Below are positions 16,683 to 25,380 of a stretch of DNA of 25,380 bases, piece by piece. The notes under the pieces were generated by a model. It ran no database searches. It was not told the DNA's origin and saw nothing but the letters and a program-made list of their open reading frames with translations. The first letter of the stretch is position 1; each line of letters starts with the position of its first letter. The translations under genes and the position numbers were made by a program. Source of the DNA: a virus (taxonomy: Duplodnaviria; Caudoviricetes); IMG/VR virus record IMGVR_UViG_3300033067_000103, positions 1 to 25,380 of that record, one strand, 5' to 3'.

Positions 16683-17156
16683 TCAGTTGGTGACGGTGAA
16701 GCCGGACGTGTAGCTGTAGTTGTTCTGGCGTCCGGTGTGCGAGATCAGACCCGCATAGATCGTGCCCGCGCCGTAGGTGCCGACGATCGTATAGACGATC
16801 TTCAGGAAGCGGTACGGCTTGTTGGAGTCCGCGCCGGCGTCCTGGAGATAGGGAAGTGGCACGCGCAGCAGTTCGCGGCCTGCCAGAAGGCGAGCCGTAA
16901 CGATCGCCGGCGTCTGGACCAGCGTGACATAGGTGCCTTCCGCGCCGGAGCCGTTGTCGGGCGCACCCTGGATGGCGACCTGAAGCGAAGTGCCGCCGGT
17001 CAGCGAGGTGATGATCTGCACCAGCACATCGAGCGTCTGGCCATCGACGCCGAGATCGCGATTGGCGCCGAGGTCGAGGCGGTTGGTCGAGTCCGCCGTG
17101 GTGGTCAGCGCCGTGCCCGTCGGATCGAACTCAAGCAGCTTGTCGAGAATGGTCAT
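16683..17156 (-). CDS. Capsid cement protein (BPP-1 Bbp16-like)
   Basis: MTILDKLLEF...T.TADSTN.LDLG..RDLG...RFLKIVYT..GT..AG.I.AGL; directly downstream of the capsid gene. Confidence 0.82.
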   Translation of the reverse strand: MTILDKLLEFDPTGTALTTTADSTNRLDLGANRDLGVDGQTLDVLVQIITSLTGGTSLQVAIQGAPDNGSGAEGTYVTLVQTPAIVTARLLAGRELLRVPLPYLQDAGADSNKPYRFLKIVYTIVGTYGAGTIYAGLISHTGRQNNYSYTSGFTVTN

Positions 17157-17180
17157 GTGATTTCCCCCCTTCCGACCCGC

Positions 17181-18230
17181 TCAGATGATCCGGGCTTCGG
17201 TGTTCAGCAGCGCGTCGCAGGTGCGGATCGGCACGCCGCGGAAAGTGGTGATCGGCTTGCCGTCCCACTCATCGAAGTTCAGCAGCACGTTCACCTTGTT
17301 CACCGCCTGGATGTCCAGATAGGTGCGGATCGTGCGGTTGCAGTAGATGCCGAGACGGCCGTTGTTGGTCTGGCCGCCGTTCGGCGCATCCGTCTTCTGC
17401 TCGGTGCCCACGCCCGGAGGCTGGGTCGGCAGACGATGGACGGCACGGATCAGCGCAGTGATCAGGTTCGGCGGGGTCGCGCCCGAGAGCGTGGTCACGT
17501 CGATGTTGCACATGCGCACGATGTAGCGCCAGTCGCGGACGCTGAGGCCGTTGTCCCACTTGAAGTGGGTCGTGTACGCCTCGTAGCGGTTGTTGTTCAC
17601 GTCGGTCGCCGGCGTGTAGGTGCCCTTGTCTTCCATGCGGAAGCCGGACATGCCGCCCTTCGGGAAGATGCCGTGGCAGGTGCGCGGTCCCCACGTCACC
17701 ATCCACATGGAGGTGTTGGCCGATCCGGTGCCCTGGCAGTCGATGACGTTCGCCGCCGAGAGCGCGGTCGAAGTCGAAACGGTGTTGTAGCGCGGCGCGA
17801 GGCCCATGAACCGCTCGGGGTTCACCGCCGTATTCCCGTAGAACACGGTGGACGCCATCTGCTGCGTCATGCCTTCGAGGAAGGCCATGTCTTCGGACAG
17901 GCGGAACTCCGGCGCGTTGCCGTTCAGATCGGCCAGCGCGCGATCGACAACCGAGTACGTCTCCAGCATACCGATCGAGTCGGTGATCTTGGCCGTGGTG
18001 GACTTGGCCGTCGGCACGCCGTAGTTCAGCAGGCGCCACGTCGCGGACGGGATGCCCGTGCGAACCGTGGTGACGTGGCCGGTCGTGCCATTCGCCTCGA
18101 CGACAAGCATGTCATCGAGAACGTCGTTGGTCTGCGACAAAAGCTCGATAATCATCGAGATCTTGCCATCGCCTTCGTGGCGCTTGGCCCAGTCGGCGTA
18201 AGTGAGAGCGAGCGCCCCGATCAGTGCCAT
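17181..18230 (-). CDS. Major capsid protein (BPP-1 Bbp17-like), 349 aa
   Basis: IIELLSQTNDVLDDM, TTVRTGIP..TWR.LN.GV, VDRALADLNGN...FRLSED.AFLEGM, GLSVRDWRYIVR.CNID and F.GVPIR.CDALLNTEA. Confidence 0.95.
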   Translation of the reverse strand: MALIGALALTYADWAKRHEGDGKISMIIELLSQTNDVLDDMLVVEANGTTGHVTTVRTGIPSATWRLLNYGVPTAKSTTAKITDSIGMLETYSVVDRALADLNGNAPEFRLSEDMAFLEGMTQQMASTVFYGNTAVNPERFMGLAPRYNTVSTSTALSAANVIDCQGTGSANTSMWMVTWGPRTCHGIFPKGGMSGFRMEDKGTYTPATDVNNNRYEAYTTHFKWDNGLSVRDWRYIVRMCNIDVTTLSGATPPNLITALIRAVHRLPTQPPGVGTEQKTDAPNGGQTNNGRLGIYCNRTIRTYLDIQAVNKVNVLLNFDEWDGKPITTFRGVPIRTCDALLNTEARII

Positions 18231-18243
18231 TGGTTTCCCCCCC

Positions 18244-18993
18244 CTAGGCCGTCTTCGACTGCATCGACGGATAATAGTCAGCCGCCGAAGGTTGTTTCGC
18301 GGGCTTGCCGCCGATTACCGGCTTGCCTTCCGCGGTCTGCTTGCCGAGGCGCACCAGAAAGAGCGCCATCTGCGGATTGTAGCCTGCACCCGTTGTGTCC
18401 AGCATTTGCCGGAACGACTGCGCCTGTTCGCCCATCACGGCGTCGATTGCTCGCGCCGCCATGCCGAGATTCTGCTGCATCTTCGGGCCGCCGATCTCGG
18501 GATGCGCCTTGACCTCGCCCACCCAAGCTTCAACCTGGTCGGCCCACGCCTTGTAGGGCGCGTTCACCATTTCGGCGATCTTCGGCGCGAAAACATCGGT
18601 CAGGCCCTGAAGCCCTTCCGCATCCAGTCCGCGGCCTGCCGCCCAGTCCTTCAGCTCGGTCATCACCGGCTGGCCGGCGTCGATTCCTTCGGGCAGCTTC
18701 AGCCCGTCATACGTCTTGAGCAGGTCGGCCTTGGCCGTTTCCTTCGCCGCCGCGTCGGCCGCCTCACGCTCGGCCTTGGCTTCCGGCGTTTCCGCCGCAG
18801 CCGCCTCCGGCTTGGCTTCGGTCGCGGCAGCTTCCGGCTTCGCGCCATCGGCCGGCGGCGTATCGCTCGCGCCAGCTTCGACCGTCGCGGTAGCGAGCGG
18901 CGACTTCAGCTCAGCAGTTGCAGGCGCAGCGCCAGCCCCGGCCACCGCGCCCGCTTCCGCCGCCTCAGCCCCCGCTGCGACCACATCAGCCAT
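18244..18993 (-). CDS. Capsid scaffolding protein
   Basis: Acidic Ala-rich N-terminus, Y..LKLPEG, W...VKAHPEIGG, LD.TGAGYNP, SAAD.YP; precedes the capsid gene. ATG 18993 has better spacing from AAGGAG than ATG 19002. Confidence 0.85.
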   Translation of the reverse strand: MADVVAAGAEAAEAGAVAGAGAAPATAELKSPLATATVEAGASDTPPADGAKPEAAATEAKPEAAAAETPEAKAEREAADAAAKETAKADLLKTYDGLKLPEGIDAGQPVMTELKDWAAGRGLDAEGLQGLTDVFAPKIAEMVNAPYKAWADQVEAWVGEVKAHPEIGGPKMQQNLGMAARAIDAVMGEQAQSFRQMLDTTGAGYNPQMALFLVRLGKQTAEGKPVIGGKPAKQPSAADYYPSMQSKTA

Positions 18994-19441
18994 TGGCTGC
19001 ATTCTCCTTGGCCATCAGCGCGTACTCGGCCGCGCAATGCGCCATCAGATTCGTGAAATAGGGCAGACCGACATTGGCCGCGCCGTCAGCGAACGCCATC
19101 GCAAGCGCGACGCGCATTCCGTCAGCATGTCCCCCGGCGTCTGCCATACGTCCCCGAAAGATCCCCGTCGCCCCCAGCAAACGCCACATCTGGCGCCGCC
19201 CGGCCTCGCTCGACATCTGCCACTTCAGGTCGTCCACCTCGCTTGCGGCTTTGGCTTTCGACTTTCGCGACCGACGCCCAACCGAGGCGCTGTCACCAGC
19301 GTTATAATGTAACGCTTCGGTTTGCGCTAGTGGTTGTGTGTCGGAAGCCTCGGCACGCAATTTCTCGGCTTCGGTGTGTTCGCAAACACCCTCGCCGCAG
19401 ATCGGACACGACACGCCGTCGGTTAGAACCCGAGCAGCCAT
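18986..19441 (-). CDS. Bbp19-like protein with Cys/His-containing N-terminal extension
   Basis: DDLKWQMSSEAGRR.MWRLL...GIFR...MAFADG..NVGL...HC...Y..M.KE; lies between portal and scaffold. Start uncertain. Confidence 0.75.
   Translation of the reverse strand: MAARVLTDGVSCPICGEGVCEHTEAEKLRAEASDTQPLAQTEALHYNAGDSASVGRRSRKSKAKAASEVDDLKWQMSSEAGRRQMWRLLGATGIFRGRMADAGGHADGMRVALAMAFADGAANVGLPYFTNLMAHCAAEYALMAKENAANG
19299..19315. promoter_or_regulatory. Palindromic motif copy 4 (GCGTTATAATGTAACGC)
   Basis: Perfect 7-bp inverted repeat AGCGTTA-N5-TAACGCT (19298-19316), about 300 nt upstream of the scaffold/capsid genes; imposes a TTA Leu codon in a high-GC gene. Confidence 0.72.
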
Positions 19442-19599
19442 TTGATCCTCTGCCAGAGCGTCTTGGGCTGCGGCATCGGCGCTGACTGCTCAGCCTCATC
19501 CAGCGCGAACTCCTCCTCCAGCGTGCCGCCGCGGATCACGCCTTGCGCGAACCGGCCAAAGCGCGTCGAAGGATCAATGTCGTATTCTGGATCGCTCAT
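19423..19599 (-). CDS. Small hypothetical protein, 58 aa (MSDPEYDIDP...TLWQRIKWLLGF)
   Basis: Hand-translated; ATGA overlap with the portal stop and fills the gap to the next gene. Confidence 0.6.
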   Translation of the reverse strand: MSDPEYDIDPSTRFGRFAQGVIRGGTLEEEFALDEAEQSAPMPQPKTLWQRIKWLLGF

Positions 19600-21323
19600 C
19601 GGCCAAGGATCTGCTGAAGCGCGTTCTGCCCGGCGCCGGTCTGCGTCTCGCTCAGCACCTTGCCCGCGTTCGCCGCTTCCGTGCCAGCCTGGAGCGCCAT
19701 CTGCGCGTTCTTTTGCTGCGCCGCCTGCGCTCGCATCACAGCCACGTCGTCGTCGCTGCGCAGGATCTTCGGGCTCACGCCCAGCGCGTCGGCGTATTCG
19801 TTGATCGCCTCATCGGAATTGATCTTGTCGATCGCGCCCGGCACCACCGGCACAATGTTGCCGACAAACCCGAGCAGCCGCTCGATGCCCGTGGTCGCCG
19901 TCGCCTTCTGCGCTTGCGCCAGAACCGACACGAAATCCACCTTCAGCGCCTTGCCCTGAAGCGATGGCGGGATCGGCTGCGGCAGCATCTTGTTGCGCAC
20001 CATGATGCCGTAGAGCCGCATCACCGCGACCGTCAGCACCTCGCCATTCTCGCGCTCCAGCGCCGGGCCGAGCATCAGCATCTTTTCGTTGTTGCGGATC
20101 GCGATGTCCGTCGCGCTATGCACCTTGTCGATCTGCGAAATCGGAAGGAACAGGTCGTAGAAGAACGCATCCCGGATGCGCTTTTTCACTTCCTCCAGGT
20201 CGGCCGTGATCGCCTGCAAGCCCTGCGGATGCACCTCGTAGGCGGGCTTGAAGCCGATGCCGTTCGGGTTGGCGATATACGTCACGCCGCCGGGGATCGA
20301 AGTCGCCGGCTCATTCTTGAGCGACGGGTCCGCCACCATCGGCGGATTGACCAGCTTATCGACGAGCTGCGCCTTGCGCTTTGTCTCGACCTGAAGCTGC
20401 AACACGTCGCCGATCGCGTCGTGCCCACAGCCGCGGCCATAGGGATCGTTGCCGGTCACGTTCCAGCGTGCGCCGACAAACGGCTTGTCGCTGAAGCCCT
20501 TGCGGCGCAGGAAGCGTCCGGCCGCCCGGCCATACTCCCAGTAGTATTCGACCCACGGCATCCCGTCGGCGCCGAGCTTGCCCAACACCTGCTGCGCGTT
20601 CGGGCACACGAGATGGGCCACCATGAACTCGGTGTCCCAGTTGTTGTCCTTGTAGAGCCGCTGCACCTCATCGGAGCAGTTCTCGACGCCGAACTCACCG
20701 ACCATCTGCTCGACGGTCCAGCTCGACTTGCGCGCCAGGGTATCGACCTCCAGCCGCTCGTTCACCGCCATGTAATACTGGCCGATGGCGAACGGGTAGC
20801 AGCGGATGATGTCGTCGTAGTCCTCGTACATCATCATGGCACCGGTCCCGAACACCCCGAGATCGGTGCAGAGATCGCCCATGCAGACGTAGAAATTCGA
20901 CCCGGCGAAAATGGCGTACATCCGCTTGGTCAGGTCATGCAGCCAGATCTGCTCCGGGCTGCCGTCGGCGAACTTCTGATTGAAGATGCCGAGCGCAAAC
21001 CATGGCCGCGCTGGCGACACCATGCCCGCCATCAGTCCGGCGCCGAAGCGGTCGGCCGCAATGGTCGCCGTGTTGTCGAGGATGCGGTTGTTCTTTTGGC
21101 GTCCGCGCGTGCCCTCGTTCGGGCTCTCCAGAAAGCGCGACGCACGCGGCAGGATGTTGTTGGCGATGGTCACCCACTCGGTCCACCACGACCAGCGCAC
21201 CGTTTCGAGCAGCGTCATGCGCAGGTCGAGCTTGCGGCGCAGGTCCACATCCGACTGCGGAACGTCCGCTTCCGATGTCGTCTCCTTGACCGCGACCGCC
21301 CTTGCCCCCCGGCGCTGCGCCAT
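19596..21323 (-). CDS. Portal (head-to-tail connector), T7 gp8/BPP-1 type, 575 aa
   Basis: ILDNTA..A...GAGLMAGMVSPARPWF, SNFY.....L..FGTG, ARW.V.G.D.YGRG.G.DA.GD...LQ, R.AFF.DLF and SAT.I..R..EK..MLGP.LER. Confidence 0.95.
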   Translation of the reverse strand: MAQRRGARAVAVKETTSEADVPQSDVDLRRKLDLRMTLLETVRWSWWTEWVTIANNILPRASRFLESPNEGTRGRQKNNRILDNTATIAADRFGAGLMAGMVSPARPWFALGIFNQKFADGSPEQIWLHDLTKRMYAIFAGSNFYVCMGDLCTDLGVFGTGAMMMYEDYDDIIRCYPFAIGQYYMAVNERLEVDTLARKSSWTVEQMVGEFGVENCSDEVQRLYKDNNWDTEFMVAHLVCPNAQQVLGKLGADGMPWVEYYWEYGRAAGRFLRRKGFSDKPFVGARWNVTGNDPYGRGCGHDAIGDVLQLQVETKRKAQLVDKLVNPPMVADPSLKNEPATSIPGGVTYIANPNGIGFKPAYEVHPQGLQAITADLEEVKKRIRDAFFYDLFLPISQIDKVHSATDIAIRNNEKMLMLGPALERENGEVLTVAVMRLYGIMVRNKMLPQPIPPSLQGKALKVDFVSVLAQAQKATATTGIERLLGFVGNIVPVVPGAIDKINSDEAINEYADALGVSPKILRSDDDVAVMRAQAAQQKNAQMALQAGTEAANAGKVLSETQTGAGQNALQQILGR

Positions 21324-21600: not shown

Positions 21601-21824
21601 CCGCCGAGCGTCATCTTCGCGGACGTGCTGGCAGGCGTCACAAGGCCCGCCGCGCCACCCGAATTGACGATCGCGCCCATGTCGGAGCCGATGTTCTTGA
21701 TGCGCTTGCGATAGTCGGCACCCGCCTGCTGGATGCCCGAGTCAGGCAGGGTCGGCGGAGGAGGGGGCGGTGGCGGCACGGGCGGCGGGTTTACGGCCTG
21801 CGCCTTCCGCGCTCCAAAGCACAT
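21597..21824 (-). CDS. Small Pro-rich virion protein (T7 gp7.3 position), 75 aa
   Basis: MC- start, poly-Pro run and C-terminal K.TLGG, typical of the small gene preceding podovirus portals. Confidence 0.75.
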   Translation of the reverse strand: MCFGARKAQAVNPPPVPPPPPPPPTLPDSGIQQAGADYRKRIKNIGSDMGAIVNSGGAAGLVTPASTSAKMTLGG

Positions 21825-21836
21825 CGTCCTGCCCCC

Positions 21837-21853
21837 GTGTTACAACATAACGC
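21837..21853. promoter_or_regulatory. Palindromic motif copy 5 (GTGTTACAACATAACGC)
   Basis: Intergenic, 12 nt upstream of ATG 21824 at the head of the portal-capsid genes. Confidence 0.75.
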
Positions 21854-21928
21854 TCCCGCCTCTATACCGCGCTTGCGCCGAAGCGGCAATGGGAGCATGT
21901 TGAGCGCCTTGTGGCTAAGCGCATCCTT

Positions 21929-21955
21929 GCCCCGGCATTCGTGCCGGGGTTTTTT
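21929..21955 (+). terminator. Intrinsic terminator with plus-strand polarity
   Basis: GCCCCGGCA-TTCG-TGCCGGGGT stem-loop with a T6 run (21950-21955) on +; no U-tract follows the stem on the minus strand. Confidence 0.8.
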
Positions 21956-22685
21956 AATTCGCCGTCAACGGGTCATAGTCGCCGACATCGGCGCGCGCAC
22001 CAACAGCGCCGGCGGGCTTGGTCATCATCAGCGGGATGCCGGACACGCAGAGATATTTTGTGCTGTCCATTAAATGGTCAGCCTTCTTGACGATGTTGCC
22101 CTTCTCGTCGCGGTGATAGACGCGAAACTCCGACCACCAGTTCACCAAGGTCGAAAACACCTTCAGCCGCCCGCTGCCCATCCGCGACCACACCTCATAG
22201 ATGCCAGCCTCGACAGCGTTCACCGCAGGCGTCACCGTCAGCCCGAGATCGCGGTACACCTGAAGCAGTTGCTCACCGTCCTTCTGGCCGCGACCGCGCG
22301 CCGCCGGGTCGATCACCCCGTGCATCCACCCGCCGCGGCGCCGGATCGCATCGGCGACAAACACCGGCTCGCGCTGCTTGGCGTACACCTCCTCATACAG
22401 ATAGAGCGTGTCCGTCTCCCGGTCGTGCGCACCGAACAGGCCGGCCGTCACGTTCCAGCCCACGTCCAGCGCATAGCCGCGCGGCCAGTAAACCGGGATC
22501 TTGAACGGCTCGACTCGAAGGTCCGATTCCGGCACCGCGTAGATCGCGCCGGCGCCCAGCGTCGGAATGCCCTTCGACCGCGCATCCCGCTGATATTCCG
22601 GGATGCCCTCCAGCAGGTCTTTCTTGTCCGCTTCCGTGAGGTGGGGAACATCGTCCCAGCTCGCCATCACGAGCGCCTTGGTCAT
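21954..22685 (-). CDS. terL: Terminase large subunit, C-terminal part (end of ATPase region plus RNase H-like nuclease), 243 aa
   Basis: MTKALVMASWDDVPHL...RDARSKGIP.LG.G.IY, ALDVGW, IDPA and DHLMDS.KY; P22 gp2-like. Start set at ATG 22685 (ATGA overlap with the micro-ORF). Confidence 0.9.
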   Translation of the reverse strand: MTKALVMASWDDVPHLTEADKKDLLEGIPEYQRDARSKGIPTLGAGAIYAVPESDLRVEPFKIPVYWPRGYALDVGWNVTAGLFGAHDRETDTLYLYEEVYAKQREPVFVADAIRRRGGWMHGVIDPAARGRGQKDGEQLLQVYRDLGLTVTPAVNAVEAGIYEVWSRMGSGRLKVFSTLVNWWSEFRVYHRDEKGNIVKKADHLMDSTKYLCVSGIPLMMTKPAGAVGARADVGDYDPLTAN

Positions 22686-22771
22686 TTCCAAAACCTCGTC
22701 AGAATGCTCGCCAGCCCCATCGCAGCCGCCACGCCGCCAAAGTACCAGGCCATATGCCCCCAAATGCTCAT
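22682..22771 (-). CDS. 29-aa hydrophobic micro-protein (MSIWGHMAWYFGGVAAAMGLASILTRFWK)
   Basis: Hand-translated; G-rich SD (GGGGGATAGG), one TM-like segment with basic C-terminus, ATGA overlap with terL-C. Confidence 0.6.
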   Translation of the reverse strand: MSIWGHMAWYFGGVAAAMGLASILTRFWK

Positions 22772-22773
22772 CC

Positions 22774-22817
22774 GCCTATCCCCCTAGGGATAATACTTAC
22801 CCCAAAATCGGATAGGC
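22774..22817. promoter_or_regulatory. Hairpin between the terL halves overlapping the micro-ORF SD
   Basis: Outer arms GCCTATCC/GGATAGGC (8 bp) with inner stem GGGGUAA-GUA-UUAUCCC in the minus-strand RNA. Confidence 0.55.
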
Positions 22818-22843
22818 TGCTGCTTCCGTATGGTTACGCACGC

Positions 22844-23650
22844 TCACTCAATGTCCGGGTCGAACGCCAGCCGCTCGTCCGCCATGGCGCTGCCGTCCCC
22901 CATGAACGACTTGACCACGTTGCTGAGGCCCGCCATCGGCGTGAACAGAACCATCACGATCCCGCCCGTCGTCATCGTGCGGACCAGGCACTCCGAATAG
23001 ACATCCTCCGGCGGCTCCTCATCCAGCAGCACCATCTCCTGCTCGGTGCCCTCGAAACTGCCGCGGCCCATCTCGTAGCTCTTAAACCCGACCTTCGACC
23101 AGCCGTCGAAATTCCCCTTTGCGTCAAAATGCCGCACCCTCGCCCGGTCGATCAGGTCGATGCCGCGCCGCCAGGTAATCGCACCGATCATCCGCTTCGG
23201 CACCATGCCCATGCCGTCCATGGACTTCGTGCCGTTCGGATTGGAGATGATCTCGCCAAACAGCCCGGTCAGCAGGATGTCGCGCGTCGTCGTCGTGTCC
23301 TTGCCCGCCACCCACGCACGGATCGGCTTGTCGAAGCGCCGCCCCTCCCACCAGTCCGGATAGCAGCCGGTCAGGTGCGCCGTCGCCTCGAACATGCCGC
23401 CCTGACTCTTGCCGACGCGGTTGCCGGCCATGAACAGGCGCTCGCGGTGAATGGCGCCGAGGCGGAAAAACTGGACGTGCTTGGGATACAGCTCGCGGCG
23501 GAACGGACCCTCATTAGGAAACATCCCGTAGAACTTGTTTTCCCGGTTGCTCTGCGCGACCGCCTCCAGCGCCTTCAGGTACTCGGCCGCCTCGTTTGGC
23601 TTCAGCCGCGCGACAACCTCATCCGGCAGGACCGGCGCCTTGAGCAGCAT
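22844..23650 (-). CDS. terL: Terminase large subunit, N-terminal ATPase part, 268 aa
   Basis: YPKH motif, Walker A FMAGNRVGKS, HLTG.YPDWWEGRRF, Walker B VLLDEEP, coupling motif LFTP; P22 gp2-like. Confidence 0.93.
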   Translation of the reverse strand: MLLKAPVLPDEVVARLKPNEAAEYLKALEAVAQSNRENKFYGMFPNEGPFRRELYPKHVQFFRLGAIHRERLFMAGNRVGKSQGGMFEATAHLTGCYPDWWEGRRFDKPIRAWVAGKDTTTTRDILLTGLFGEIISNPNGTKSMDGMGMVPKRMIGAITWRRGIDLIDRARVRHFDAKGNFDGWSKVGFKSYEMGRGSFEGTEQEMVLLDEEPPEDVYSECLVRTMTTGGIVMVLFTPMAGLSNVVKSFMGDGSAMADERLAFDPDIE

Positions 23651-23763
23651 CAGTCCAGCCAGAACAGCACGGTCTTAACCACCAGCACCGCTGCCGCCAT
23701 CGTCGCCAGAAGCGACACGCAGAACAGCGCCAGCCACGCCGCGAACGGCTTGTCCCCCTCCAT
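23650..23763 (-). CDS. 37-aa single-TM micro-protein (MEGDKPFAAWLALFCVSLLATMAAAVLVVKTVLFWLD)
   Basis: GAGGGGG SD before ATG 23763; TGATG overlap with terL-N. Confidence 0.6.
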   Translation of the reverse strand: MEGDKPFAAWLALFCVSLLATMAAAVLVVKTVLFWLD

Positions 23764-23774
23764 CGCACGCCCCC

Positions 23775-23864
23775 TCACCACTTCATCCCCTTCGACCCCA
23801 CCACGATAAGCCCAAAGATCGCCAGTGTCGCGAGGACGTGCAGGTAGAAGGATGCGGCGGTCAT
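23775..23864 (-). CDS. 29-aa single-TM micro-protein (MTAASFYLHVLATLAIFGLIVVGSKGMKW)
   Basis: ATGA overlap with the upstream gene; hydrophobic core. Confidence 0.55.
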   Translation of the reverse strand: MTAASFYLHVLATLAIFGLIVVGSKGMKW

Positions 23865-24313
23865 GTCTTGAACCCCACTTCGCCGAGCCGCCATTCCTTG
23901 CCGTCCCATTCGGCCAGCACAGGATCGCCAAAATCGCGTGTTGCAAAAATCATGATGCTGGTCCGGCTTGCGAGCCACATATGCATCGGCTTCAGGCCGT
24001 CGGGCAATTTCGTGATGGGCTCGGCGTCCGCTCGCCGCGGGTATGAAACGCGAGGATCTGCGCCAGGCTGCATCAGCTCTGCCAGCTTCATCGCCGGCGC
24101 CCGCTTCGGCCCCGGCTCCGCGCCAACCCGGATCAGCCACTCCTCCGGCCCATAGCTCTCCCACCAGTGCCGCGCCTGCGACACGTTGGCAGCGTCGATG
24201 TAATTGTCCGACACCGGCTCGCCCGCCGTGTTGAAGTCGTGCCGCAGGTCAGGACGACTCTTTACGAAATCCATCCACTCCGCTTGACTCACCGCGCGCC
24301 ATTCGTCGCTCAT
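23861..24313 (-). CDS. Hypothetical protein, 150 aa
   Basis: ATGA overlaps at both ends; no recognisable motif. Confidence 0.65.
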   Translation of the reverse strand: MSDEWRAVSQAEWMDFVKSRPDLRHDFNTAGEPVSDNYIDAANVSQARHWWESYGPEEWLIRVGAEPGPKRAPAMKLAELMQPGADPRVSYPRRADAEPITKLPDGLKPMHMWLASRTSIMIFATRDFGDPVLAEWDGKEWRLGEVGFKT

Positions 24314-24516
24314 CCCTTCAGCCCCACCGTCATCCGCCCGATCACCACACCAGCCTCACGCAGCGCACCGGCCAGCTTCTCCACCGTCGCATCGTCCACG
24401 CTCTCGCCGCCCTCGTAGCGGTCGATCGTCTTGCTCGACACGCCAGCGGCCTCAGCCAGCCGCGGGCGCGACCAGTCGAGCAGCGCGCGGCCGGCGCGGC
24501 ACTGGACGGGCGTCAT
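24310..24516 (-). CDS. XRE-family helix-turn-helix regulator, 68 aa
   Basis: MTPVQCRAGRALLDWSRPRLAEAAGVSSKTIDRYEGG...L..AL.EAGV, a pattern common in alphaproteobacteria. Start at ATG 24516 (ATGA overlap), not the track's 24837. Confidence 0.88.
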   Translation of the reverse strand: MTPVQCRAGRALLDWSRPRLAEAAGVSSKTIDRYEGGESVDDATVEKLAGALREAGVVIGRMTVGLKG

Positions 24517-24689
24517 GGCCACAGCAACCCAACCGCTACCAAGATGCTGCACACAACCGAAATGGCCTGCAAAATAATCACCGCCTTCCACGATATCCGG
24601 CGCCTGCGTTCGCGAGCCGCCATCTGGCTGAAAAATTCCGCATCCATCTCCGCTTCGATGCGGCGGCGCTCGTCTGCCCAGTCGCTCAC
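24513..24689 (-). CDS. 58-aa protein with C-terminal TM helix (MSDWADERRR...AVIILQAISVVCSILVAVGLLWP)
   Basis: Hand-translated from GTG 24689; ATGA overlap with the XRE gene. Confidence 0.55.
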   Translation of the reverse strand: MSDWADERRRIEAEMDAEFFSQMAARERRRRISWKAVIILQAISVVCSILVAVGLLWP

Positions 24690-24707
24690 GGACGGCCTCG
24701 CCCTGCC

Positions 24708-24860
24708 CTAGCCATGGCAGGGGCTCTTTTCTGGCCACGAGTTCACCACGATCCAGAACCCGCCCGCCGTCCAGAAGCCTTGGTCCCATTCGCCAATGTG
24801 CATCGCCCTCGTGGCGAACATCACAGCGGCCGCACAAAGCGACCCGACGATAAACTTCAT
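24708..24860 (-). CDS. 50-aa hydrophobic protein (MKFIVGSLCAAAVMFATRAMHIGEWDQGFWTAGGFWIVVNSW...)
   Basis: Hand-translated; GGGGG SD and ATGA overlap with the upstream gene. Confidence 0.5.
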   Translation of the reverse strand: MKFIVGSLCAAAVMFATRAMHIGEWDQGFWTAGGFWIVVNSWPEKSPCHG

Positions 24861-25201
24861 TCCCCCGCCCTCCCCGGACGATCCGAGTCTTCGGCGAATT
24901 GGCCTTCTACCATCTCGACCGTGCCGACCAGCACATACGGCTCACGCAAGGACCGTTCGGCCATCGGCACCCAATGCTTGTTGTCGCCCGACCGATACAG
25001 CCACACCTTCACCCGCGCCGGCTCGCGCCACTCGGAGACAAGCGTCAGCTCGTCGCCATTGCGGGGCGAATAGGCTTCGCATTCGACCCAAACCTGAGCC
25101 GCCCCGTCATGCCAGCCAAAGGCGAGGCCATTTCCGAGCGCGTCGATCTTGACCTTCCACCCCTCCCGCGTCCGGTAGTGCTTTCCAGCTTCAATCTTCA
25201 T
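24857..25201 (-). CDS. Phage hypothetical protein, 114 aa
   Basis: MKIEAGKHYRTREG.KV...LVSEW.EP pattern resembling small phage hypothetical proteins; ATGA overlap downstream. Confidence 0.7.
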   Translation of the reverse strand: MKIEAGKHYRTREGWKVKIDALGNGLAFGWHDGAAQVWVECEAYSPRNGDELTLVSEWREPARVKVWLYRSGDNKHWVPMAERSLREPYVLVGTVEMVEGQFAEDSDRPGRAGE

Positions 25202-25380
25202 GGCTGATGAACTCCATGGCGGCCAGGACCTCGTTCGTCGAACTCAGCAGCTTCAGCCACGTTGTATCCGGCAACGCCGTCATCACCGCCGTCCACATCG
25301 GATACCTCACGCTCCAGCCGATACACCCGAAGCCGGCGCCGGATCTCATCCAGCCCATTCCATACCGCCGCCTCACTCGA
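25198..25380 (-). CDS. 3' end of a hypothetical gene entering from outside the window (frame uncertain)
   Basis: Open frame SSEAAVWNGLDEIRRRLR...HQP* ends in an ATGA overlap with ATG 25201; an alternative frame (25191..25376) is also open. Confidence 0.35.
   Translation of the reverse strand, partial: SSEAAVWNGLDEIRRRLRVYRLEREVSDVDGGDDGVAGYNVAEAAEFDERGPGRHGVHQP

Follow-up and report, generated by a model that had tools for sequence, protein, structure and literature searches.

A phage large terminase probably built from two chains, with its gene cut at the same loop as in many relatives

The large terminase subunit, TerL, is treated as a universal one-chain marker that joins an N-terminal ATPase to a C-terminal nuclease (PMC7824862). 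In P74-26 TerL the ATPase domain comprises residues 1-256, with a lid that contains residues 228-245, and this lid has been proposed to be the generator of packaging force (PMC5389665). The tubular tail B of the Pseudoalteromonas phage phiRIO-1 is split into gp44 and gp40 (PMC4819975), the Twort terminase is recorded in three CDS (PMC13729910), and Arthrobacter cluster AT phages carry two terminase-large-subunit-related genes that lie several genes apart (PMC5513430). Here we describe a TerL that appears as two genes in a virus record of 25,380 bases, which was analysed at its full length and is called the window below. We put the odds at roughly four in five that this is a two-gene TerL of the P22 gp2 type, translated by ordinary coupling, in which the DNA between the genes is a small cargo insert.

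The two genes, terL-N and terL-C (Table 1), together provide the P-loop ATPase and the RNase H-fold nuclease of a P22 gp2-type terminase, and the feature of that type that is absent is the single polypeptide for both domains. The terL-N product carries GNRVGKS at residues 76-82, DEE at 210-212 and FTP at 236-238, which on general knowledge we take to be Walker A, Walker B and the coupling motif, and it ends with a 30-residue tail beyond FTP. An earlier note on this DNA had placed the stop about 26 codons after the coupling motif; the position soon after FTP stands, and the distance is corrected to 30 codons past the P. The terL-C product holds the linker GIPTLGAG and the RNase H-type nuclease residues D74 and D203-H204-x-x-D207, of which D74, D203 and D207 are presumably catalytic. 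Its residues 42-212 match the P22 nuclease 4dkw (E 3.8e-21), and the gene has a Shine-Dalgarno sequence (SD) of its own, GAGG (22697-22694), 8 nt ahead of the ATG. The same note had judged the catalytic motifs of both halves to be intact, and the near-invariant columns of 79 split sequences agree: GNRVGKS, DEE and FTP hardly vary among the N halves, and in the C halves D74 is found in 79/79, D203 in 78/79 and D207, which the window's terL-C retains, in 54/79. The last nuclease motif (terL-C 203-207) has two main variants, DHxxD and DDxx(S/A/C), both of which occur among split and among fused proteins, with the final Asp mostly missing where His is replaced by Asp. Searches with terL-N gave no phmmer match to PDB sequences and, as a lone query against viral contigs, no locus. 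NCBIfam returned weak matches only, far under the cut-off.

Table 1. Features of the terminase region and their positions in the window
Feature	Position	Strand	Remarks
Portal (head-tail connector) gene, full-length	19596..21323	-	PF12236, E 9e-139
terL-C, 243 aa	21954..22685	-	ATG at 22685; Pfam PF17289 (Terminase_6C), E 1.1e-9
Hairpin 2 (predicted)	22669..22699	-	terL-C SD paired with early terL-C codons; AUGA in loop
29-codon micro-ORF	22682..22771	-	G-run SD; ATGA overlap with terL-C start
Gap between terL halves, 158 nt	22686..22843	-	seen in contigs of runs X1, X2 and X6
Hairpin 1, 44 nt	22774..22817	-	8-bp lower stem, 6x5 internal loop, 7-bp upper stem
16-codon ORF	22797..22847	-	terL-C frame; start GTG AGC; GTGA overlap with terL-N stop
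terL-N, 268 aa	22844..23650	-	P22 gp2-type ATPase core; Pfam PF03237 (Terminase_6N), E 1.3e-10
37-codon ORF	23650-23763	-	strongly hydrophobic; strong SD; TGATG overlap with terL-N start

The frames of the two genes differ, and the gap between them holds a TAG in the terL-N frame and a TAA and a TAG in the terL-C frame; G+C falls to 53% in 22750-22849. Support for the gap comes from assembled contigs, not raw reads, at a depth of 2-4 in all runs except X1. In X1, which may be the record's source, a 9,891-nt contig is identical across 22400-23100. A second sample of the same study (X2) gave a 671-nt contig (22353-23023) with one difference, which lies inside the 29-codon micro-ORF at a depth of 4. 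Another study (X6) gave a 243-nt contig that spans the whole gap and is identical over 22614-22856, while X7 is identical over part of the gap (22636-22786), and the RNA run X9 yielded one contig, covering only 23023-23100 and stopping short of the gap. The description in the earlier note of a split with a 158-nt gap, a change of frame and stops in both frames is thus matched by the ORFs and by the contigs, and the continuous ORF that it named as a refuting outcome is at odds with the separately assembled contigs, which carry all or part of the gap. Identical short contigs at a depth of 2-5 recur in runs X2-X7 and X9, from several studies with unlike labels. This could reflect wide dispersal or carry-over between samples, and carry-over is what an assembly artefact would have on its side, since contigs other than that of X1 are of low depth and identical across unlike studies. 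Given the separate assemblies, we consider misassembly of the gap unlikely.

The record carries a podophage head-tail module on the minus strand, with both terL halves upstream of the portal gene, a capsid gene assigned to PF20911, and tail and internal virion genes recognised by PHROGs matches; the portal, capsid, tail tube, internal virion and tail fibre genes are all long open frames. The module at 16683-21323 is a mosaic, in which Bbp16-like and Bbp19-like genes and a GP7-type capsid sit next to the P22-type terminase. The four upstream ORFs scanned (23650-25380, where the record ends) include none that was recognised as a small terminase. One of the small ORFs of the region, the 37-codon ORF without a family match, places a membrane-type ORF before terL-N too. 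Just past the terL-C stop, a plus-strand hairpin with a T run (21929-21960) resembles a terminator and faces against the late genes; one terminator-like hairpin was found where 1.5 are expected by chance. No sigma-70-like promoter was found in 21700-24000.

The cut recurs in relatives of this terminase. Among the best non-self matches to terL-N, 117/119 end 20-47 residues past the F of FTP, a figure that is no ratio of split to fused genes because the search was confined to proteins of 147-469 aa. From viral, metagenome and genome collections we fetched 272 loci, of which 149 are split at the same loop, the feature that the earlier note had suggested looking for in homologues, 79 are fused and 38 are without a C half inside the locus; the rest are cut by a contig end (4) or lack an N half (2). 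These counts are not population shares, since the collections overlap and the split-form queries inflate the split share. Among five loci without a C half that were followed up, one genome gave no match and one gave a match at another locus. The C gene of 92 of the 102 non-redundant split loci begins 2 or 7 codons ahead of a conserved strand, K-Y-L-V-x-A-x-W-D-D-V-P-H-L, so that the second gene has a conserved Met or Val start of its own; the start analysis met 8 split loci, out of 150, in which the nearest 15 codons contain no start codon. The start of the window's terL-C, MTKALVMASWDDVPHL, belongs to the 2-codon class, and its MTKALV fits the MSK/MSR/MTR class. Split-type prophage loci are present in several cultured bacteria, namely Acetobacter musti (L198), Comamonas sp. 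B-9 (L216), Fulvimarina endophytica (L206) and Mesorhizobium strains (L257-L266), and among the matches listed (40, 60, 60 and 60 of about 420 records) no isolated phage carries the split. Two isolated phages were considered and set aside: in Xanthomonas phage DES1 (L034, OK624832) terL is broken near its N-terminus by a 498-nt ORF, and in Escherichia phage HC-25922 the two-piece record is broken near the C-terminus. On the evidence of these gene sequences, about a hundred distinct relatives cut terL at the same loop, and the split is a family trait.

What lies between the halves is far less constant. Among the 102 non-redundant split loci the genes overlap in 50, lie 0-30 nt apart in 11, 31-300 nt apart in 11 and more than 300 nt apart in 30, so that the spacing has a 4-nt overlap at one extreme and at least 5.5 kb at the other; the non-negative gaps are spread evenly across the three frames (26/27/22 among 142 redundant loci). 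Two whole genomes place the halves at distances of 4.0 kb and 5.5 kb and have the usual C start, and a third genome places them 14.2 kb apart. Near-identical Mesorhizobium pairs have unequal gaps (1296 vs 279 nt, and 390 vs 1068 nt). Of 55 ORFs in the larger gaps, 48 have no Pfam match and seven match six unrelated kinds of domain, namely LPD23, HNH, MotA/ExbB, gp49/66, beta-helix and LCCL (loci L014, L056, L197, L202 and L243). An ORF ends at the terL-C start in 83/102 loci, and in 60 this ORF is terL-N itself. Where the gap exceeds 100 nt, a cargo ORF ends there in 23/37 loci vs 11/111 control positions, a weak control because phage genes are densely packed anyway.

This variability bears on whether the two genes might still yield one polypeptide, by ribosomal bypassing or by splicing across the gap. 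T4 gene 60-type bypassing involves matched take-off and landing codons, a stop after take-off, a hairpin at take-off and a fixed gap. Of these features the matched codons and the stop are present in the window: the last terL-N codon before the stop is GAG, and GAG recurs in the open terL-C frame at +77, +137 and +149 nt, the first of these just behind hairpin 1. The take-off hairpin and the fixed gap length are absent, the take-off site being unpaired in the centroid fold, and a matched codon pair is a common feature, found in 13/41 gapped loci. Splicing has a precedent in the Jug phages, whose terL is split by spliced group I introns (PMC12880540). Rfam, by contrast, gave no match within 22686-22843 up to an E of 5, and relatives whose halves overlap or are widely separated have no room for an intron. 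Both routes to a single chain are at odds with the family, in which the halves overlap in every second relative and in others are separated by kilobases, whatever the frame, and with a terL-C that has the family's own start. The earlier note had ranked bypassing and splicing as less likely; with variable gaps, overlaps and no Rfam match, we regard a single restored polypeptide as very unlikely.

Selection and descent speak to a different alternative, namely that the locus is a dead gene, left by an insertion into the terL of a decaying prophage. Among 18 split pairs the N half has a median dN/dS of 0.078 and the C half one of 0.082 (maximum 0.32), and among 13 fused pairs the medians are 0.059 and 0.029; all pairs are drawn from relatives, with the window's copy in none, its nearest relative being 60.6% identical. 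The low values in split pairs indicate that both halves are kept under selection, so that relaxed selection, which the earlier note had named as a sign of decay, is not what these 18 pairs of relatives show. The higher value for the C half in split than in fused pairs (0.082 vs 0.029) may mean that the C half of split relatives is perhaps under less tight selection. Decay would fit a gap that is unique to the window's phage among the fetched loci. It fits poorly with a cut that falls exactly at the family's split loop, with intact catalytic motifs, with the long open frames of the portal, capsid, tail and internal virion genes, and with purifying selection in split relatives. We therefore hold a dead gene or an assembly artefact to be very unlikely, and return to the reading in which two genes make a working TerL.

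How often the family has passed between the two forms can be gauged from a tree. A length filter removed 23 of the 229 split or fused loci (the window included), and clustering at 90% reduced the remaining 206 to 146 rows (104 split, 42 fused). A FastTree tree of the joined cores implies no fewer than 12 switches between the two forms, 6 of them forced by well-supported branches, where shuffled labels require about 37; as the root was not inferred, gains and losses of the split are indistinguishable in this count. A gap of 1,885 nt separates the halves in the sister row of the window, and most of the nearest rows (about 60% identity) overlap by 4 nt. One fused TerL (L039:4016-5512) branches within a group of 26 split rows. 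Its linker, DAVASRVSDSKYLV, looks like an N-chain end followed by the leader of a free C chain. This position and the leader-like linker suggest a re-fusion.

Structural models place the cut inside the ATPase domain, before the linker between ATPase and nuclease. Mapped onto the model of a fused relative (pLDDT 92), it falls in the loop between the helix that follows the coupling-motif strand and the next strand. The terL-N model matches the folds of P74-26, D6E, T4 and Sf6 TerL; it aligns with residues 11-209 of P74-26 TerL (Z 15.6, rmsd 3.6, 175 aligned) and with residues 64-305 of T4 gp17, and the fused-relative model continues to residue 255 of the former and 358 of the latter. These two alignments bear out the earlier note, which had put the break ahead of the linker. 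Residues 3-8 of terL-C are predicted to form the last ATPase strand, and the lid helices are predicted to lie in the same chain. Since the cut is inside the ATPase fold and not at the flexible linker, the lid would travel with the nuclease. A complex of the window's two chains, modelled as the earlier note had suggested, scored 0.80 vs 0.08 for the best of three controls, against a mark that is reached by 116/157 solved complexes and 2/215 mismatched pairs. The runs agree in at least 67% of contacts, with a partner pLDDT of at least 79, and the best predicted contacts set terL-C 3-8 against terL-N 70-76, in the strand just before Walker A. Two halves of one gene tend to reach this mark through their likeness to solved one-chain terminases, so that the score speaks of fit and not of binding.

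Within the gap itself, the 44-nt hairpin and the 29-codon ORF that meets the terL-C start as ATGA are both present, as the earlier note had seen. Hairpin 1 has a z of -3.05 in a 71-nt frame chosen around it and of -0.68 with 111 nt; when windows are tiled without selection, the one with hairpin 1 comes 15th of 724 (z -2.62). Hairpin 2, which that note did not contain, lies over the terL-C SD, with a z of -2.18 in a 66-nt frame and a tiling window ranked 7th of 724 (z -3.17). Across the tiling, the greatest stability belongs to a 71-nt segment elsewhere, early in the tail fibre gene (1825-1895 on the minus strand, z -5.65). Hairpin 1 had been said to mask the SD of the micro-ORF, which holds in part, with 2 of 5 G in the stem and 3 of 5 in the internal loop. 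This SD has a duplex value of -9.3, and the opening energy of the start, 17.1 kcal/mol, is the second highest among 25 valid starts. The micro-ORF's codon score exceeds that of all 174 open off-frame windows, yet lies in the lowest 2% of 175 in-frame windows. Its predicted product had been called a transmembrane peptide of 29 aa; the ORF is there, and the membrane call is marginal, with a best 19-residue hydropathy of 1.42 vs 2.66 in the 37-aa ORF upstream of terL-N. We consider the 29-codon ORF probably a small cargo gene. The 16-codon ORF stops at the top of the 5' arm of hairpin 1. Its start shares the junction gag-TGA-gc with L003 and L198, in which the identical site begins terL-C, and this start may for that reason be a relic, possibly of the original terL-C start, followed by an in-frame insertion of 162 nt.

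These elements could be arranged into a gate that is selected in, and private to, the window's phage and that controls the second chain of a two-chain TerL. Ribosomes finishing terL-N would restart on the 16-codon ORF and melt hairpin 1, which would free the SD of the 29-codon ORF, whose translation would in turn melt hairpin 2 over the terL-C SD. The chain of overlaps from terL-N through the 16-codon and 29-codon ORFs to terL-C is unbroken (GTGA, the stop at the hairpin top, ATGA), the micro-ORF SD is strong but partly masked, and the codon score above all open off-frame windows is on the same side. Both hairpin windows, moreover, are in about the top 2% of 724, which is more than a reading as incidental cargo needs. 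Against such a gate, neither the gap DNA (blastn, best E 0.058) nor the 29-aa peptide (tblastn, best E 0.23) matched any of the fetched loci above chance level, the closest relative available for the gap comparison being at 61% identity. The SDs of the micro-ORF and of terL-C are partly or wholly paired in predicted folds, but the opening energies are no outliers: five other starts in the window come within 1.5 kcal/mol of the micro-ORF's, one of them higher, and the terL-C start is average, at rank 47 of 102 split family loci. A start codon that overlaps the terL-N stop is common (19/41 gapped loci), the micro-ORF's hydropathy is marginal, and the sole gap variant alters a micro-ORF codon, although at depth 4 this may be an error. 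The proposal of the earlier note that the nuclease half is gated by a hairpin through a leader peptide, as a designed feature, is not supported: hairpin and peptide lack a counterpart in the fetched loci, and the gate does not carry over to the family, where 50/102 split loci overlap and have no gap and where it is usual for some ORF to end at the terL-C start. We therefore think the gate unlikely. The same doubt attaches to a switchable motor, in which the ATPase core would stay incomplete until chain two is made and a relay of two hairpins and two micro-ORFs would meter that chain by translation, which would thereby govern both the activity of the motor and the cutting of DNA.

Our preferred reading is the simpler one of a two-gene TerL with a cargo insert. 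The packaging motor is likely built from two chains that are predicted to complete one ATPase fold, chains that we infer from DNA. The family-wide split, the C gene's own start, purifying selection and the models together uphold the two-chain reading, and the corresponding claim of the earlier note, that this is a two-chain TerL and not decay, gains support from family recurrence, intact motifs, selection and modelling. Under this two-gene reading, the two TerL proteins would reassemble into one working subunit, the second chain completing the ATPase sheet with its last strand and adding lid and nuclease, in a predicted complementation. Once the gene had been cut, the junction would have become a slot that gains and loses cargo DNA, and the 158-nt gap would be a small insert in this slot. 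terL-C would be translated by ordinary coupling to whatever ORF reaches its start, which in the window is the 29-codon ORF, and the SD of terL-C would likely aid translation. The hairpins possibly tune terL-C translation, and are unnecessary to explain the locus.

If the two chains do work together, split TerLs would offer a natural test of whether the domains must be covalently linked, whether a ring can function with a reduced number of nuclease chains, and how ATP is coupled through the lid to the movement of DNA. Split terL pairs also risk being misread as pseudogenes or as half-length markers, and the terL junction deserves attention as a slot for cargo genes; the window's hairpin and micro-ORF add little to this unless gating is real. 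Avs1-3 defences recognise TerL (PMC11564622), and as a speculation, terminase-sensing Avs defences might see a motor that stays in two chains until assembly differently.

In the literature searched, in which subscription journals were thinly covered, we found no description of fission at this loop, and the available parts of PMC11564622, PMC5679792, PMC8508860, 10.1101/672428, PMC10386132 and PMC4837284 do not describe this fission. The closest one-chain counterparts, EBPR podovirus 1 gp39 and the TerL of Chlorobiaceae phage CV-1-33, have the same motifs and the same P22 gp2-type fold, and each of the window's halves is 42-55% identical to these records. In the annotated records examined, the one-chain type is a single CDS, whereas the window's phage has two genes. 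The terL of Jug phages likewise lies in several ORFs, but there splicing restores one chain (PMC12880540); unlike a terL interrupted by group I introns, the window's gap has no intron match. Cluster AT phages are isolated phages with two terL-like genes, and the available account does not state that these are complementary halves (PMC5513430). A parallel in arrangement is phiRIO-1 B, an essential protein of a podophage that consists of two polypeptides; their genes are separated by unrelated ones, with no intron, and both chains were seen on SDS-PAGE (PMC4819975), while the window's terL chains are deduced from DNA. phiRIO-1 B is a structural protein whose split is rare in its family (PMC4819975), whereas the protein described here is an enzyme, apparently cut within its ATPase fold across a large clade.
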